A program made the position numbers and the translations under genes. The notes below the pieces were generated by a model. It saw only the letters and a program-made list of their open reading frames with translations. It was not told the DNA's origin and made no database searches. 64,000 nucleotides of DNA from an uncultured Syntrophaceae bacterium (lineage in GTDB: Bacteria; Desulfobacterota; Syntrophia; Syntrophales; UBA2192). Shown here one piece after another: positions 529 to 59,198 of this stretch. The DNA is taken from contig CAZUBX010000005.1 in assembly GCA_964619035.1 (NCBI GenBank), positions 2,643 through 66,642 on the forward strand. Reading direction: 5' to 3'. Numbering within the stretch: the first letter of the stretch is position 1; each line of letters begins with the position of its first letter.

Positions 529-596
529 AGTTTCACCCTCACCTCGGTGCTCTCCCCTCAAGGGAGAGGAAGATTAAGGAAAAGTTTGCTTTAGGC

Positions 597-636
597 AAAA
601 AAAATTGGTGGATGACGGACGGCTCATCCACCAATT
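597..636 (-). terminator. intrinsic terminator (minus strand)
   Basis: Read on the minus strand: 13-bp stem aattggtggatga/tcatccaccaatt (603-615 with 624-636), 8-nt loop, then a U-run (plus-strand A-run 597-602). Confidence 0.7.
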
Positions 637-863
637 CTATGTTAAAAGAGAGGTTGTTCCCCAACCCCCTCCCTTTTCTAACAGGGGGTCGGCGGATGGA
701 AAGGAGGGAACCAAAAACCATCCGCCGATTTACAAACCTAAAGCACGATCCTTGCTGCTAGATATTTATTTTATGAGACCTTTGGAGAGGATCTACCTTT
801 CCGGTTAGATAAAATCTTTATCTCTCTTTTATGTTAAAGGTTCCGTCGTCTAAAGGTCTCGAC
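597..863 (-). ncRNA. candidate sigma54-dependent small RNA, copy A (about 265 nt, no credible ORF)
   Basis: Bounded by the sigma54 promoter 874-889 and the terminator 597-636. Contains a hairpin at 690-727 (10-bp stem) whose loop on the transcribed strand reads UUUUUGGUUCCCUCCUUU. Confidence 0.4.
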
Positions 864-873
864 ATTGTTATAG

Positions 874-889
874 AGCAATAACGATGCCA
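874..889 (-). promoter_or_regulatory. sigma54 (-24/-12) promoter
   Basis: Minus strand reads TGGCATCGTTATTGCT, which matches TGGCAC-N5-TTGCW at TGGCA and TTGCT with exact spacing. 15 of 16 nt are identical to the site at 12298-12313. Confidence 0.55.
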
Positions 890-1021
890 AAAAATAAAAG
901 TTAATTATTGCAGATATTTATGAATTTATCGGCTGATCTTGCGCCAGCCAGACGTTCGCTTATCGCACAAATTGAGGGGGTATTGCCGTGACAAGTGCGG
1001 AAAATCGATGCTTCGCCGGAT

Positions 1022-1056
1022 GTGCCTTATTCGCACGTCATGTGCGAATAAGGCAC
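1022..1056. promoter_or_regulatory. perfect 15-5-15 palindrome (candidate enhancer/UAS; could also act as a transcript-end hairpin of the activator gene)
   Basis: gtgccttattcgcac-gtcat-gtgcgaataaggcac, all 15 pairs complementary. It lies 8 nt after the stop of gene 1064..3241 and about 150 bp upstream of the sigma54 promoter at 874-889. Confidence 0.5.
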
Positions 1057-1063
1057 TATTATA

Positions 1064-3241
1064 TTAAGTACCCGTATCTCCGCCTTTTCCAACCTTTTTC
1101 AATTCACGAATCAGTGCGTACCGGGAGATATTGAGCAGAGCCGCAGCTTTTGTCTTATTGCCTCCGCTCAACTCCAGGGCCCGCTCAAGAATCCGCCCTT
1201 TGATCTTTCCGGTGAGTTTTTCGACGGCACGTTTGTAATCCATCCTGTCCGTTGCCGATATGAGAGGGAGCAGCTCATCGGCGGGAGCGACGGGATCCTG
1301 GGCGGCCGACACTTTCATTTCTGCAGGGATGTTCTCCGGTGTGATGTGACGGCCCACATCGCGAAGGATCATGATCCGCTCGATGATGTTCTTCAGTTCG
1401 CGGACATTCCCGGGCCAGGTGTACCGGCGGAGGATTTCCTCGGCTTCCTTGGTAACTCCCTTGACCTTCTTGTTGAACTTCCGGTTGAACTCCTCCACGT
1501 AGTTGCGTGCCAGCAGCAGGAGATCATCGCCGCGTTCGCGAAGCGGCGGCAGAATGATCGGCACGACACTGATGCGGTAGAAGAGGTCCTCGCGGAATGA
1601 ACCTTCGGCCACCATCTTCGAGAGATCCCGGTTCGTCGCAAAGATGAACCGCACGTCTACAGGGATGGACTCGTTTCCCCCGAGGCGGCGGATGTATCCG
1701 TCCTCGAGCATCCGAAGAAACTTCGCCTGCAGCGGAGGGCTCATGTCGCCGATCTCGTCGAGAAAGAGCGTCCCCCCGCTGGCATACTCGAGAAGACCGA
1801 GTTTGCGCTTCCGGGCATCGGTGAAGGCCCCCGCCTCGTAGCCGAAGAGTTCGCTTTCCAGGAGGGTCCCCGGGATGGCTGCGCAGTTCACGTCGACAAA
1901 GCGTTTCTGGCTCCGGTGACTCTGACGGTGAATGGCGCGGGAAACGAGCTCTTTTCCAGTGCCACTCTCCCCCTGGATGAGGATATTGGTGTCGTGCTTG
2001 GCCACCTCTTCGATGACGTGGAAGATACCGACCATTTTCTTTGACTTGCCCAGGATGTTGTGAAACCCGAGAAGGATGTCTTCCCGCTCCTTGAGCTTCT
2101 CCACCTCCGTCTTGAGCGACTTCGCCTCGATGGAGAGGATGGAGTGCATGATGGCGCTGTCATAGGACGTGGCGGCATTATTGACGAGAATGTCGAGAAC
2201 GTTGATCTGGTCCTGCGAATAGATGCCCGTCCGCATTCCCAGCAGAAGAACCCCCTTGAAGCGGTCTTTCACTTTCAGGGGAATCGCGACCTCCGAGGGA
2301 TAGCCTTCGTAGAGGGGCACGACGGCATCTGAGTCCTCCACGGAGTCCTCATCGGGCTCCTCATCGGGCTTCTGCACCGTGATGGTTTCGCTGTCGAGGG
2401 CCCTGCGGATTATTGTCCGGTCAATCCGGACACCATACTCGCTCTTGTCGTCGATGAACCCCCGCTCCCCGTCATTGATGAAGACGCGGTTCTTCACGAT
2501 GTCGAGGAAATAGATGAGGGCCTTTTCGGCCTTCCCGATCCGAAGGGCGCTTCGGATCAGGATCTCGTGGATCCGCTCGATCGAGTAAGTCGAATTCAGG
2601 TCGGAAACGGCCTCCTGAAGGATGAGCAGCTGTTCGATCTTCTCCCGGTTGATCTCGAAGAGGCGCGTAATGTGGATGATGATACTCACCTGGTTTGCAA
2701 AGGTGAGCAGAATGTCGATCTCGTCGGGGGAAAATCTGGTTTTTTCCTTGGTCCAGACGGCGATGATGCCGATGACGTCGTCTTCGATTTTCAGGGGCGC
2801 ATAGAAGGTGGAACCGCGCTTGTAGAAGGCGGAGATCTTTCGATCCGTCTCCGTCGTGCGGGGGTCCTTCTCCGAGTCCTCGAGAGCGATGTAATGGCCG
2901 GTCTTGGCCACCCGGGTCTCGAAGCTGTCATGTTTTTTCAGGCTCAGGTGTGACGAGTAGGCCTTCTCGGCCTCTTCGTCGCTGTAATTCTTCACGACCC
3001 GAGTGATCAGGTTCTCCCGGCTTTCATCGAGGAGGAGAATGATGCCCCGGTCGAATCCCATGGAGTCCACGACTTCATCGAGAATCTTTCCAAGGATGTC
3101 CGCAACGCTCGAGGGGGCCGTGAGGAATGTGCTGATCTGGAAGATTCCCTTGATCAGCTTGTCCTTGTCGATGCTGAAGGCCGAAGATGTCCTGACGGGA
3201 GGGGGGGGTATCGTTCCACCCTGTTCTATGATTCGCGCCAT
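1064..3241 (-). CDS. sigma54-dependent transcriptional activator with two N-terminal GAF-like domains
   Basis: 725 aa. AAA+ sigma54-interaction module with GESGTGKE Walker A and ESELFGYEAGAFTDA (GAFTGA-loop variant), plus a C-terminal Fis-type HTH NKTKAAALLNISRYALIRELKK. Confidence 0.9.
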   Translation of the reverse strand: MARIIEQGGTIPPPPVRTSSAFSIDKDKLIKGIFQISTFLTAPSSVADILGKILDEVVDSMGFDRGIILLLDESRENLITRVVKNYSDEEAEKAYSSHLSLKKHDSFETRVAKTGHYIALEDSEKDPRTTETDRKISAFYKRGSTFYAPLKIEDDVIGIIAVWTKEKTRFSPDEIDILLTFANQVSIIIHITRLFEINREKIEQLLILQEAVSDLNSTYSIERIHEILIRSALRIGKAEKALIYFLDIVKNRVFINDGERGFIDDKSEYGVRIDRTIIRRALDSETITVQKPDEEPDEDSVEDSDAVVPLYEGYPSEVAIPLKVKDRFKGVLLLGMRTGIYSQDQINVLDILVNNAATSYDSAIMHSILSIEAKSLKTEVEKLKEREDILLGFHNILGKSKKMVGIFHVIEEVAKHDTNILIQGESGTGKELVSRAIHRQSHRSQKRFVDVNCAAIPGTLLESELFGYEAGAFTDARKRKLGLLEYASGGTLFLDEIGDMSPPLQAKFLRMLEDGYIRRLGGNESIPVDVRFIFATNRDLSKMVAEGSFREDLFYRISVVPIILPPLRERGDDLLLLARNYVEEFNRKFNKKVKGVTKEAEEILRRYTWPGNVRELKNIIERIMILRDVGRHITPENIPAEMKVSAAQDPVAPADELLPLISATDRMDYKRAVEKLTGKIKGRILERALELSGGNKTKAAALLNISRYALIRELKKVGKGGDTGT

Positions 3242-3252
3242 GAATCCACCTC

Positions 3253-3287
3253 TTCAGGGGACAGGGTTTAGGGTACAGGGTTCAGAA
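3253..3287 (+). repeat. heptamer array (NNCAGGG)x5
   Basis: ttcaggg gacaggg tttaggg tacaggg ttcagaa, strict 7-nt period. Confidence 0.8.
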
Positions 3288-5772: not shown

Positions 5773-6390
5773 CTAACCGCCGGCTGCCGTCTGCTTCACG
5801 AGATCCTTGTTCGGGGAAATGGGTTCCCGGAGATCGACATGCCCCTTGAGGGTCGTGACGTCCTTGCCGCCGACCTGGAACCGGACCCTCTTGATCTCCG
5901 TGAGATTCTGGGTGAGCGTGTTTGCCAGCGAGTAGACCGTGGCCACTTCGCTGGCCGTCCCGCCGGGGTGTTGCTCGATGAAGGGGTTGTCGAAATTCAG
6001 GGTTGCCGTGCCATCGGTGATGCGAATGCCCTGCAGCCTGGTCCCTGCCGGAATCGTCCGGACCTGCCCCATCTTCGGCCCCTCGATGAGGGCCCTCACG
6101 ATTTCCTCGGCCTGGGCGGCCGTGTTCTTCCCCTTGGGGACAAGCCGCTTTTCCGCGACGAGGAACCGCTCGTTGGCATCGGAAAAGTAGAGCACCACTT
6201 CCTTCCTCTCCCGTTTTGCCGCCGCTTCTTCGGCGTCAGGCGGAAAGATGGTATCCGAGAGCGCCCAGAACATAAATGCCAGGAATCCGCCGCCGATGAG
6301 GACGGCGCCGAGAATGAAGAACACCCTGAAGGTCTTCTTTTTTTTCCGCGTCTTGAATTCGTCGGTTCGTCGCTGTCTCTTGCTCGCCAT
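5773..6390 (-). CDS. GerMN domain-containing membrane-anchored protein
   Basis: Basic N-terminus plus one TM helix, then a GerMN-like core (VVLYFSD...ALIEGP...IPAGTRL...TATLNF...VRFQVGG). Confidence 0.7.
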
Positions 6391-10042: not shown

Positions 10043-11452
10043 TTACTTCATGGGCGCTAAATACGGAATGGTCAGTGCGAAGTACCAGCACAGGAAGAAG
10101 ACGAGCGGGATGTGGATGAGCATCTGCAGGACGGAGTAACCGACGAGATCCCTCGCCTTCATGTGCAGGATCCCCAGCAGCGGCAGCATCCAGAAGGGGT
10201 TGAGCAGGTTCGGGAGCGCCTCGGCGGCATTGTAGATCTGTACGACCCAGCCCAGGTTCACGCCGTGCTGCACGGCTGCCGACAGAACGTAGGGCGCCTC
10301 GATGACCCACTTGCTGCCGCCGGAAGGGATGAAGATCCCGAGAACGGCCGAGTAGAGGGCCACCAGCAGCGAGTAAGTCTCTTTCGTCGAAATGGCGACA
10401 AAGAGATCCGTCAGCCACTTGTTGATCCCCGTGCCGGCGATCATGCCGAAGATCACGGCGTAGAAGGGGAACTGGATCAGCACGCCACCGGTGGCGGGCA
10501 CTGCCTGGGCCACGGCCTTGAGGAAGCGCTTGGGCCGCCAGTGCAGCAGCATGCCCACGGTGATGAAGATCAGGTTGTAGTTGTTGAGATCCAGCGCCGC
10601 GATGGGCCCGCGGGGCTCCTTCTGGAAGAAATCAAAGAGATACCATACCAGGAGACCTCCCACGAGGACGATCAGGGCCGGGCTGTACTCGAGCCACTCG
10701 CCGGGCTTCTGCCGGGGCTCCAGGCTCGTGTCGATGGGGTCGAACTTCAGGCCGTAGTCCTCGACCGTCTTGGCCCGTTCGGGCTTGGGCGCGGAGAAGT
10801 ACGCAATGAGGACGGAAACGACGATGAGGGAAACCGCCGTCCAGAATGTCGGCCAGATGAAGAGGGTCTGCGTCAAGGGGATGAGGCCGCTGATCTCGTA
10901 GAGCTTGGGAGGGATGGAGCCCTTGGTGGCCATCATGAGGGCCGCCGAGGAGGATAGCCCCAGCGCCCAGACGGCGCCCAGCCCCAGGTAAGCGGCGGCA
11001 CCGGCGGCACGGAAGTCCATGCCCTTGATCGTGCGCGACATCTCGCGGACGAGCAGCCCGCTGAAGATGAGGCTCAGGCCCCATGAAATAAGCGACGTGA
11101 TCATCGAGAAAAACGCGATCCAGGCGATCGCCGCCCGGGGGTTCGTCGTGATACCGGCCACCTTCCTGATGACCCAGTAAACGGCCGGCGTGGTCGCCAC
11201 GACGTAGCCGCCGATGATGATCAGGGCCATCTGCATCGTGAAGGGAATCAGGATCCAGAAAGACTTTCCTCCCTCCCAGACCAGTTTCTGGGGACTCTCC
11301 CCGATGAGAAGACCGAACACAAAGACGAAGACGATGCCGACGAGAGCGAAGACCCACGCATCGGGAAACCACTTCTCACTCCAGGCTGCCAGCCAGAGAC
11401 CGAAACGCTCGAGGGCGGTTTCGTTCTGCTCAGTATTTTTGTTCTCTGCCAT
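10043..11452 (-). CDS. atoE: short-chain fatty acid transporter
   Basis: Matches E. coli AtoE as I recall it (FTMQMALIIIGGY, LIQFPFYA, IPSGGSKWV). ATG at 11452 is preceded by aaaggagggagaa. Confidence 0.85.
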   Translation of the reverse strand: MAENKNTEQNETALERFGLWLAAWSEKWFPDAWVFALVGIVFVFVFGLLIGESPQKLVWEGGKSFWILIPFTMQMALIIIGGYVVATTPAVYWVIRKVAGITTNPRAAIAWIAFFSMITSLISWGLSLIFSGLLVREMSRTIKGMDFRAAGAAAYLGLGAVWALGLSSSAALMMATKGSIPPKLYEISGLIPLTQTLFIWPTFWTAVSLIVVSVLIAYFSAPKPERAKTVEDYGLKFDPIDTSLEPRQKPGEWLEYSPALIVLVGGLLVWYLFDFFQKEPRGPIAALDLNNYNLIFITVGMLLHWRPKRFLKAVAQAVPATGGVLIQFPFYAVIFGMIAGTGINKWLTDLFVAISTKETYSLLVALYSAVLGIFIPSGGSKWVIEAPYVLSAAVQHGVNLGWVVQIYNAAEALPNLLNPFWMLPLLGILHMKARDLVGYSVLQMLIHIPLVFFLCWYFALTIPYLAPMK

Positions 11453-11735
11453 GCCGATTTCTCCCTCCTTTCGTAGATTCCATAGAGCATTCAGATAAAT
11501 TGCATGTTTACATGAATGGCCGCAACGCCGATCAACGCGACCCCTCGGCGCACGGCACTGCCTATTCTGATTGCATGTTGAATCTTCCGGGAGACCCAGG
11601 ACTGTCCGCGGGATATCAGGATATAAGGACAAAGAGTAAAAGTTCTTCGCCCGGCAGGAAACACAATAATAAAAGCGGATCCGATCCGGCCCCCCCTGAG
11701 GCATCACCCCCTTTCCGAAAAGGATTGCATTACAG

Positions 11736-11773
11736 AAAAAACCCCGCTCACATGTCCGTAAACGGGGTTTTTT
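11736..11773. terminator. terminator-like hairpin with A/T flanks
   Basis: aaaaaaccccg-16 nt loop-cggggtttttt. It lies in a gene-free region, so its partner transcript is unknown. Confidence 0.35.
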
Positions 11774-12160
11774 CTTTTGTCCGTCTCATGGCTGCAACAC
11801 CACGTCTGATTGTTATTTTGATCTCTTCCTCATTCCAGCATGGCTATAACAGATCGATCCTTTTTATACAATAGGATTGGGATAATTATTTTCCATCCCA
11901 TCAGACCGGTTACGAAGCACAAAGAATGCAAGGCGGCCTGGGATCGTAACAGGATCGTAAAATGACTTCAAAAGGGGTTCGGATCGAAATAAATCAGAGG
12001 GCCTTTGTCGCCCAGGAGGGCAAGATGTCCTTCGACGGTTTTGAGGACGAGGAAGAGAGGTAGACCAACGCAAGGACGAGGATTGCCGGGTTTGTGAGGC
12101 AGCGCTTGATCCGTTTGTCCATGTATCGTTGCAGCATTGACATGATCGAACTTCCTGTTT

Positions 12161-12287
12161 GAAAAAGGTATCGGTGGATGGAAAGGAGGGACCAAAACCA
12201 TCCACCGATCAACCTCTTTCAAATGAGCGCCGGGAAATATTGGGGTCTGTCAGGGTCTTGGGTATTTCCCGGGACGTCTCAGTTGTT
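12161..12287 (-). ncRNA. candidate sigma54-dependent small RNA or leader, copy B
   Basis: Lies downstream of the sigma54 promoter at 12298-12313. Hairpin at 12170-12209 (stem cggtggatgg/ccatccaccg, transcribed loop UUUUGGUCCCUCCUUU), followed by uaccuuuuuc. Confidence 0.35.
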
Positions 12288-12297
12288 AGATATGATT

Positions 12298-12313
12298 AGC
12301 AATAACGATGCCG
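12298..12313 (-). promoter_or_regulatory. sigma54 (-24/-12) promoter
   Basis: Minus strand reads CGGCATCGTTATTGCT, with GG and GC elements at consensus spacing. Identical to the 874-889 site except for the first base. Confidence 0.5.
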
Positions 12314-12731
12314 GGTGATGCTTCATTTCGATAAAAATGTGAGCGGTGACAAATTCGCAAATAACTAAATAATTTCAGTATATTAAAACAGTGCTGCCCG
12401 GCAGTGGCAAAGAATCTCCTTGCCCCGGCCGGACGCGGAACCGCACAAAACGTGCGATTACTGAACGAATTACGTATATTTATTGCAAACACGCTGTTGG
12501 AAGCCGCTCACTAGGCGTGCGACTAATGAACTGCTAGTGCTATTAACGAACACTCTGTCCTGTCGGGCGACATTCGCCTGCTCCGGTGGCTGACCGGTGC
12601 AGGCCGGGGCGCTGACCGAGAGCAAGGATCCTCTGCGGGGCAGAAGCGCCCCTGGGCGTGCGGCATTGAGCCGCGGCATCGGATGCAGCGGCAGAAAACC
12701 CCAGCCTTTGCCCGAAAATACGTTTTTAACC

Positions 12732-59108: not shown

Positions 59109-59198
59109 GACATACCCTCCTTTCACGATTCAAATGCACGCATCTCAATGAAAAAAGCGAGGAGGATGACTCTTCATCATCCCCCTCGCATCAGCCAC

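Follow-up and report, generated by a model that had tools for sequence, protein, structure and literature searches.

Copy A is a predicted RNA gene on the minus strand of a 64,000-nucleotide (nt) stretch of DNA, here called the window (contig CAZUBX010000005.1 of assembly GCA_964619035.1, positions 2,643 to 66,642), from an uncultured bacterium of the order Syntrophales, family Syntrophaceae. It lies directly behind the gene of a sigma-54 activator with two GAF stretches and, with high confidence, is a real, activator-linked sigma-54 RNA gene belonging to a Syntrophales family. The unit features the hallmarks of a small RNA (sRNA) gene: its own predicted promoter, an intrinsic terminator, and no conserved open reading frame (ORF). 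The whole account favoured here—an activator-controlled, trans-acting sRNA with a loop that resembles an anti-Shine–Dalgarno (anti-SD) sequence—is probable, at a lower level of confidence than the existence of the gene. A second unit of the same kind, copy B, lies on the same strand of the window, with its promoter at 12298-12313.

The related loci with which the window was compared come from genomes and metagenomes and are numbered L001, L002, and so forth. Protein sampling yielded eight activator orthologues of 62–95% identity, taken with their flanking DNA; such orthologues are numerous in the Syntrophales. DNA sampling used the 20-mer pattern TCCCTCCTTTCCATCCNCCG, which fixes the loop and the 3′ arm of the hairpin SL-a described below, and was run on species-representative genomes and on metagenomes, with every contig returned from the latter being at least 1 kb long and thus none of transcript size.

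Promoter and predicted transcript of copy A

874..889, minus strand: sigma-54 promoter TGGCATCGTTATTGCT (TGGCAT-CGTTA-TTGCT), −24 GG at 888-887 and −12 GC at 876-875
597..863, minus strand: predicted primary transcript of ~267 nt, non-coding; start at ~863 placed by promoter geometry

The promoter TGGCATCGTTATTGCT at 889-874 is the sole zero-mismatch match to TGGCAY-N5-TTGCW in the 64 kb. A preliminary description, made from the letters of the window, had proposed it as a sigma-54 promoter; its consensus spacing is exact, and it is conserved in the orthologous loci, a sigma-54 promoter being present downstream on the same strand for eight of eight protein-sampled activator orthologues. In 11 close relatives, the conserved block opens with GAGACC (860), 12–13 nt past the −12 element, and ends at the U-run of the terminator; the sequence of the 13 nt that separate the −12 element from the predicted start is variable. 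Among relatives, the RNA is 86–94% identical, the coding DNA of the activator 79–95%, and the promoter-to-start spacer 38–77%. The fold of the 276-nt stretch has a z-score of −5.3 compared with shuffled sequences. From the sequence, we infer that copy A is transcribed and that its transcription depends on sigma-54 and on the activator.

A single minus-strand ORF of at least 30 amino acids (aa) is found inside the unit (539..721), and it starts in the stem of SL-a and runs through the terminator. Single-nucleotide indels, which break the frames, and a non-conserved ATG among the close relatives rule out a conserved small ORF in the window lineage. The earlier statement that no credible ORF lies between promoter and terminator therefore holds for copy A.

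Fold of the RNA

775..860, minus strand: SL1, long 5′-terminal stem-loop (GAGACCUUU...AAAGGUCUC); RNAalifold on 11 relatives, compensatory pairs
689..728, minus strand: SL-a, hairpin with an 11-base-pair (bp) stem and the 18-nt loop UUUUUGGUUCCCUCCUUU; covariation and covariance model
683..688, minus strand: C-rich linker CCCCCU, directly after SL-a
645..676, minus strand: SL-b (probable), AAAGGGAGG (676-668) pairing with CCUCUCUUU (653-645); single-sequence folds
637..644, minus strand: A/U-rich single-stranded linker UAACAUAG before the terminator
597..636, minus strand: intrinsic terminator with a 13-bp stem, an 8-nt loop, and U8; stem 636-603, U-run 604-597

SL-a had been described beforehand as a hairpin at 690-727 with a 10-bp stem and an 18-nt loop containing CCUCC; it is present, with its stem now read as 11 bp (728-689). 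The invariant loop segment GUUCCCUCCUUU lies at 711-700, with CCUCC at 707-703, and stays invariant while the stems vary, also in the protein-sampled loci. In 36 distinct copies of the hairpin, 98.2% of the cells are paired and 13 cells carry double changes; the swaps comprise nine from U-A to C-G and two from A-U to G-C, and six pairs are G-U. The observed covariation score is reached by none of 500 column shuffles, and slid controls collapse. Since G-U pairs correspond to C-A mismatches on the opposite strand, they argue for an RNA on the transcribed strand.

The covariance model suggested in the preliminary description was built on this hairpin. It is strand-specific, finds only two copies in the 64-kb window, and scores them at 75.6 bits (copy A) and 67.3 bits (copy B) on the minus strand, with 22–25 bits on the opposite strands. 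On related loci it recovers the true copies, all at 54 bits or above and one to three per locus, and picks up no chance loci; in eight relatives it detects second copies of SL-a on the same strand.

Upstream of SL-a, the arm of SL1 starts 12–13 nt past the promoter in 33 of the 34 distinct relatives having the arm, and one relative is covariant (GAGAUCU/AGAUCUC). SL1 is missing in some lineages (L003). Downstream of SL-a, the C-rich linker occurs as (A)CCCCC in nearly all members and can alternatively pair with AGGGGG at 670-665, which is the G-run of SL-b; L017 carries ACGCCCCU/AGGGGCGU, consistent with this alternative pairing. The preliminary description comprised hairpin and terminator, both of which stand, and lacked the SL-b helix. 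SL-b appears in individual folds of 29 relatives as a hairpin with differing arms—CUGAGAGG/CCUCUCAG, CUGAAGAGG/CCUUUUCAG, CUGGGAG/CUCCCGG, and CUGGAAG/CUUCCAG among them—and is not recovered by the RNAalifold consensus on a MAFFT alignment of the 3′ module. The A/U-rich linker reads GUUYAUAUA in relatives and, together with the U8 of the terminator, is consistent with an Hfq-type 3′ module.

The intrinsic terminator at 597-636, with the 13-bp stem and U-run given earlier, shows compensatory changes at nine pairs in relatives. Its stem GGUGGAUGA/UCAUCCACC resembles the stem of SL-a, and in the window it looks like a degenerate copy of the anti-SD hairpin that has lost the loop motif. Six relatives (L017, L026, L033, L037, L038, and L050) have CCUCCUUU in the loop of the terminator. 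An extra copy of the loop hairpin lies upstream in L013 (3044-3100) and in L019 (5456-5513), and some relatives feature two or three anti-SD-loop hairpins within one RNA.

Activator gene and upstream dyads

1064..3241, minus strand: gene of an enhancer-binding protein of 725 aa; Pfam GAF (two stretches), Sigma54_activat, AAA_lid_14, and HTH_8
1022..1056, no strand assigned: predicted upstream activator site, four GCAC/GTGC-type half-sites phased by 10 bp; sequence and half-site enrichment
964..968, no strand assigned: promoter-proximal half-site GTGCG at −79; full dyad −79/−69 in relatives, partner degenerate in the window

The AAA+ domain of the protein matches Sigma54_activat at 5e-69 and carries the GAFTDA loop at residue 471, and the C terminus features a Fis-type helix-turn-helix; the domains and the loop bear out the earlier assignment of a GAF-GAF sigma-54 activator directly upstream. 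Against NCBIfam no equivalog is reached, and no named regulator is assigned.

On the minus strand, a perfect 15-5-15 palindrome, GTGCCTTATTCGCAC ATGAC GTGCGAATAAGGCAC, extends from 1056 to 1022. It begins 7–8 nt past the TAA stop codon (1066-1064) of ORF 1064..3241, its centre lies ~150 bp upstream of the GG element of the promoter, and its core dyad is CGCAC (1046-1042) N5 GTGCG (1036-1032). Over the 300 nt that precede these promoters, half-sites of the GTGCG/CGCAC type are enriched 6.6-fold, and their positions are fixed. In loci of the copy A type (type A), the dyads are CGCAC-N5-GTGCG at −157/−147 and GTGCG-N5-CGCAC at −79/−69; in copy-B loci, they are GTGCG-N25-CGCAC at −237/−207 and CGCAC-N5-GTGCG at −142/−132. 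Even L002 and L003, in which the potential for the outer hairpin has decayed, keep the core dyad. The enhancer reading, put forward earlier on the geometry of the palindrome, is thus supported by a core dyad that is conserved at a fixed distance and common to both units, and the dyad common to copies A and B suggests a single activator for the two. From the linkage in eight of eight loci, we infer that the protein of 1064..3241 is the binder at the dyads of the unit. The palindrome, which has no U-tract on the minus strand, may also form a structure at the 3′ end of the activator mRNA.

At the other end of the gene, the 5′ untranslated region (UTR) of the activator (window 3255-3283, minus strand) contains four tandem (A/C)CCCUG repeats just before the Shine–Dalgarno (SD) sequence, as it also does in L001 and L002. 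CCCUG recurs in two further places, the linker of copy A (ACCCCCUG) and the loop, itself invariant, of the 5′ hairpin of copy B (GACCCUGACAGACCCC). The motif may be recognised by a common protein or RNA partner, or may serve in feedback. Feedback on the ribosome-binding site (RBS) of the activator itself was considered and rejected, the SD sequence of the activator (GAAGAGG) not matching the SL-a loop.

Distribution and orientation of the hairpin loci

SL-a is found downstream of the activator gene in eight of eight protein-sampled loci, one of which is a truncated contig that holds the first half only. The usual gene order is EF-G, activator, RNA, and a convergent patatin gene, and every type-A match of the pattern scans follows an activator orthologue. 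Of the 50 matches in the genome scan, 44 form the true hairpin, and every one of these falls in a metagenome-assembled genome of the Syntrophales or of 'Deltaproteobacteria'; 40 of the 44 have a same-strand sigma-54 promoter upstream. The remaining six matches fall in other phyla, have no hairpin, and are attributed to chance. Among the 110 matches of the metagenome scan are 99 true hairpins in Syntrophales-type contexts: 87 with a same-strand promoter at most 560 nt upstream, seven cut by contig ends, and five with no simple consensus. In both scans, most of the true hairpins that have no promoter either lie on truncated contigs or are preceded by variants close to the consensus. The 17 chance matches (six from genomes and 11 from metagenomes) are all devoid of hairpin and promoter. 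The exact-pattern scan gives no match in Syntrophus aciditrophicus.

A generic DNA repeat, which would be expected in both orientations, was considered and rejected: there are two copies in 64 kb and one to three per related locus, co-oriented with the promoter. Genomes contain one to two hairpin loci, co-oriented with a sigma-54 promoter nearly throughout, and the hairpin never behaves as a generic repeat present in both orientations.

Rfam 15, whose families include Qrr, CrcZ/CrcY, GlmY/GlmZ, Pxr, and RsaE, was searched at gathering and at permissive thresholds with the window, copy B, and 12 related loci. At gathering thresholds, there are 0 matches in the window and the 12 related loci, and copy B is likewise without a family; the best sub-threshold scores are 12–23 bits, compared with thresholds of 40–100. 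This comparison agrees with the earlier impression that the RNA belongs to no described family. A search of the literature for sRNAs of the Syntrophales found none described.

Two groups of loci differ from the usual arrangement. In L009 and L028, the convergent patatin gene ends ~45 nt past the hairpin, with SL-b and terminator missing or overlapping the coding region; these may be truncated or differently terminated variants. L042, L063, and L076 feature hairpin, SL-b, and terminator, with the nearest activator only 39–40% identical and no simple sigma-54 consensus within 560 nt of the hairpin; these may form a third paralogue class.

Copy B

12442..12456, no strand assigned: activator dyad CGCAC-N5-GTGCG, 133–143 nt upstream of the copy-B promoter
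12298..12313, minus strand: sigma-54 promoter CGGCATCGTTATTGCT; TGGCAT in relatives
12158..12273, minus strand: RNA leader; RNAalifold on 12 relatives, covariance-model match of 67.3 bits
11994..12143, minus strand: probable 49-aa ORF of a small hydrophobic membrane protein (MSMLQRYMDKRIKRCLTNPAILVLALVYLSSSSSKPSKDILPSWATKAL), within the copy-B transcript

Copy B has the same type of promoter as copy A, but no activator gene upstream. Because promoter type, enhancer dyad, and hairpin are common to both units, the same activator likely drives both. The two copies were compared in a motif-anchored way; the spacing from promoter to hairpin is 147 nt in copy A and 90 nt in copy B, and because of this difference a global MAFFT alignment misplaced the promoters. 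The preliminary description had noted a second copy at 12161-12313, of which promoter and hairpin stand. Copy B is not a plain copy of the sRNA, however, since it features a different 5′ hairpin, a longer stem, and a probable ORF. The 5′ hairpin (12273-12230) carries the invariant 25-nt loop ACCCAAGACCCUGACAGACCCC and shows compensatory pairs in 12 relatives. The anti-SD hairpin is extended (12223-12158), with a longer stem than in copy A and an SL-a-type core at 12209-12170.

The probable 49-aa ORF occurs in most genomes and, in 11 relatives, shows in-frame indels, a conserved stop codon, and more variation at third than at first and second codon positions, in a codon analysis that is noisy because the most upstream ATG sometimes reaches into the hairpin. 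The protein has no Pfam or NCBIfam match. The ORF is followed by a terminator, and it is absent from L006 and L052, whose copy-B RNA is ORF-less. The copy-B unit spans 12313 to ~11735. Copy B is restricted to a clade in which the activator is at least ~87% identical, and often lies on the same contig as copy A. It is always divergent from an acyl-CoA dehydrogenase gene (91–100% identity) and, in many genomes, lies upstream of and co-oriented with a gene for an AtoE-like short-chain fatty acid transporter.

Between the 49-aa ORF and the transporter gene, the window shares with L006 and L029 a conserved element of ~150 nt (window 11735-11905, minus strand). Its features are a sigma-70-like promoter that is weak (TTGTAT, 17–18 nt, TATAGC; 11872-11843), a conserved internal stem, and a bidirectional terminator (11735-11775); there is no Rfam match. 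The element may represent yet another sRNA or, alternatively, a leader through which expression of the AtoE-like transporter gene is attenuated.

Relatives with open reading frames

Distant type-A transcripts are 300–430 nt longer and feature a K/E-rich ORF of 65–75 aa between promoter and hairpin, with the module in the 3′ UTR. The ORF carries the motif FF(V/L)S and, at its C terminus, SFF(L/V)P(D/E); no family match was found for the protein. Loci L007, L013, L017, L019, L026, L038, L048, L050, L051, L056, and L057 carry it; in L004 and L033 it seems to have decayed, and the window lineage lacks it. In the short type-A variants, with 62–180 nt from promoter to hairpin, it is gone. The preliminary description of an ORF-less sRNA is thus true of copy A in the window, whereas distant type-A transcripts carry an ORF. 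The ORF-less copy B in L006 and L052 shows that the module, not the ORF, is constant. Judged by comparison of the loci, the constant element of the family is the RNA module, above all the loop GUUCCCUCCUUU.

Proposed mechanism and candidate targets

In the proposed mechanism, the GAF domains of the activator would sense a small-molecule signal. The activator would bind at 1056-1022, where the GCAC/GTGC dyads are phased, and at a second, weaker site close to 968, and would switch on sigma-54 RNA polymerase at the −24/−12 promoter (889-874), with transcription stopping at the intrinsic terminator (636-597). The functional core of the RNA would be the 3′ module, which consists of SL-a with the exposed GUUCCCUCCUUU, the C-rich linker, SL-b, the A/U-rich linker, and the terminator. 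The anti-SD-like loop would pair in trans with purine-rich RBSs of the type GAAAGGAGGGA(AC) and block translation initiation. The signal of the activator would in this way be converted into post-transcriptional control, probably of genes of fatty-acid or short-chain-acid metabolism. The base-pairing step itself, in which the loop would occlude SD sequences, has about an even chance of being correct.

11462..11472, minus strand: weak candidate target site, RBS GAAAGGAGGGA of the short-chain fatty acid transporter gene (ATG at 11452); adjoins copy B

This RBS is complementary to 11 nt of the SL-a loop, and in 10 loci, including orthologues at 76–78% identity, the transporter RBS retains AGGAGGGA and fits the loop over 10–11 nt. 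The last two positions of the match fit the sRNA loop and not the canonical anti-SD sequence of 16S rRNA. As a target of the sRNA, the site is suggestive. Further candidates with 10–11 nt of loop complementarity are the RBS of a 3-hydroxyacyl-CoA-dehydrogenase-like gene (window 59115-59124, minus strand; ATG at ~59108) and that of a DUF948 gene in L055 (~6207-6224, minus strand). The DUF948 gene is convergent to the sRNA in L004 and L055.

Several points weigh against the trans-acting account. The loop is complementary to any strong SD sequence, and the match at the transporter RBS is statistically indistinguishable from such a sequence. Sites complementary to the loop number 16 in the window, compared with 10.2 expected; three of 100 shuffles reach 16, and the excess is not significant. 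The duplex-energy scan is noisy and ranks the transporter RBS among spurious sites. Because the search pattern fixed the loop and the 3′ arm, the invariance of the loop rests mainly on the eight protein-sampled loci and on the secondary hairpins. SL-b, seen in individual folds and missed by the automatic consensus, is for that reason rated as probable only. Lastly, the occurrence of the same module in the 3′ UTR or the 5′ leader of small ORFs would fit a role in cis too.

Alternative explanations

Such a role is the substance of one alternative, by which the hairpin module works in cis, within the UTRs of mRNAs for small proteins, for instance stabilising these or tuning their translation, and copy A is a still transcribed remnant of ORF loss with no function in trans. 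The 65–75-aa ORF upstream of the module in distant type-A loci and the probable 49-aa ORF downstream of it in copy B agree with this explanation. Yet the module follows one ORF family and precedes a second that is unrelated to the first, and it persists where one or the other ORF is missing (L003, L027, L006, and L052). Moreover, the ORF-less copy A is under strong purifying selection, with an identity of 86–94% that is above that of the adjacent coding DNA, and an invariant loop of 12 nt is atypical for a purely structural stabiliser; overall, the cis explanation is considered unlikely. It is likewise improbable that the loop (C)CCUCCUUUC acts as a regulated mimic of the 3′ end of 16S rRNA. 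Such a mimic would compete with ribosomes for strong, G-extended SD sites and would throttle translation globally under the control of a metabolite-sensing sigma-54 activator; part of this proposal is an evolutionary series, which would lead from an mRNA with a regulatory 3′ UTR via a dual-function RNA (copy B) to a pure sRNA (copy A). A protein-sequestering sponge like CrcZ or RsmZ, in which the loop and the C-rich motifs bind an RNA-binding protein, is a doubtful option as well. The layout corresponds to that of cbrB-crcZ plus crcY (activator gene, sRNA downstream, paralogue elsewhere), some relatives have two to three copies of the loop, and CCCUG-type motifs occur in both units (loop of copy B, linker of copy A) as well as in the activator 5′ UTR. 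The window RNA, on the other side, has one copy of the loop, and no candidate protein is known; its 267 nt contain no AAnAAnAA and seven GGA triplets, which lie mostly in stems and are not conserved, so that neither the Hfq/Crc nor the CsrA type of sponge fits. The single unpaired AAGGA in the copy A RNA is not conserved.

The remaining alternatives deny copy A the status of an independent non-coding gene. The region might belong to the activator mRNA as its 3′ UTR, or might consist of sites that act as DNA: a palindrome that terminates the activator gene, a hairpin that is a DNA repeat, and a promoter match due to chance. The palindrome does follow directly on the stop codon and might form a structure in RNA from read-through; between the activator gene and the RNA there is no strong terminator, and read-through is documented for cbrB-crcZ (PMC5113210). 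This explanation is nonetheless very improbable: the palindrome has no minus-strand U-tract, its half-sites are kept as DNA dyads despite decay of the hairpin (L002, L003), more than 120 loci keep the promoter, its distance from the hairpin varying among them, the G-U pairs and the strand-asymmetric covariance-model scores point to an RNA on this strand, and the same promoter stands before copy B, where no activator gene precedes it. Scarcely credible is a transcript that encodes a micro-protein of fewer than 30 aa. An ORF of 15–32 aa does start from an ATG at 865-863 in the window, L001, L015, and L016. This ATG, however, lies at or before the predicted transcript start, in the non-conserved spacer, and has no SD sequence; it is absent in L002, L024, L031, L041, L047, L049, and L054, and the frames are broken by indels of 1–2 nt.

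Comparison with known systems

The design closest to that of copy A is CrcZ/CrcY with CbrB. The crcZ gene lies directly downstream of cbrB and has a CbrB/RpoN-dependent promoter, and its paralogue crcY lies elsewhere (PMC5113210). Copy A, as predicted here, corresponds to it in being an sRNA gene behind its own activator gene, with a sigma-54 promoter and a paralogue elsewhere; a link to carbon-substrate choice and a possible read-through from the activator gene (PMC5113210) are further points of likeness. CrcZ sequesters Hfq/Crc via repeated AAnAAnAA, whereas none occurs in the copy A RNA. CbrB is a two-component response regulator, whereas the copy A activator is a one-component GAF-GAF protein, and the two RNAs share no similarity in sequence or structure (no Rfam match).

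Qrr1-5 of Vibrio are likewise paralogues that depend on sigma-54 and an activator, LuxO, with one qrr gene beside luxO, and they act at RBSs. They are Hfq-type base-pairing sRNAs of ~100 nt, whose fold and conserved seed differ from those of copy A. Copy A has no Rfam match to Qrr, and LuxO features a receiver domain, not GAF.

In Desulfovibrio vulgaris, several activators have an adjacent non-coding RNA (ncRNA) as their main or only predicted target (PMC4641369); the cases are ncRNAs downstream of DVU0653 and DVU0679, together with the DVU2359 regulon (PMC4641369). They share with copy A the activator–ncRNA layout and an origin in the former Deltaproteobacteria. They were predicted by reconstruction of promoters and activator sites in Desulfovibrionales and were compared with copy A by description, with no Rfam link.

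Within a sigma-54/NtrC-dependent mRNA, that of glnA, the sRNA GlnZ is reported to derive from the 3′ UTR (PMC9731577). An sRNA module at the 3′ end of a sigma-54 mRNA is also what the ORF-bearing distant relatives feature. GlnZ is processed from a large housekeeping mRNA, whereas copy A has its own predicted promoter and no ORF.

With respect to the loop, copy A can be set beside RNAs of unrelated sequence, promoter (not sigma-54), and taxon, to which it has no Rfam match. These are AbcR1/2 of Sinorhizobium and Agrobacterium with their anti-SD motifs, RsaE/RoxS with their C-rich loops, and RNAIII of Staphylococcus with its UCCC loops and the hld ORF. They pair with SD sequences through C/U-rich loops that are exposed; one RNA may have several of these, and the loop of the terminator can be among them. 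In addition, RNAIII has a dual function, as some relatives of copy A may have. The RNA of copy A is thus of known design, yet belongs to none of the compared systems and is very probably a previously undescribed small RNA.

Significance

Members of the Syntrophales—relatives of Smithella and Syntrophus—are key degraders of fatty acids and alkanes in methanogenic digesters and sediments and carry many sigma-54 activators of unknown function. Copy A provides one of these, an orphan GAF-GAF activator, with a concrete candidate output. No existing concept is overturned; the design in which an activator gene is followed by its own sigma-54 sRNA is extended to another bacterial order. The RNA family obtained is compact and comes with a covariance model and a clear candidate for the seed, and the fixed position of copy B offers a candidate link to the genes of short-chain fatty acid uptake and beta-oxidation. 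With ORF-bearing and ORF-less versions of one module, the family would be useful for studying how sRNAs originate from mRNAs.

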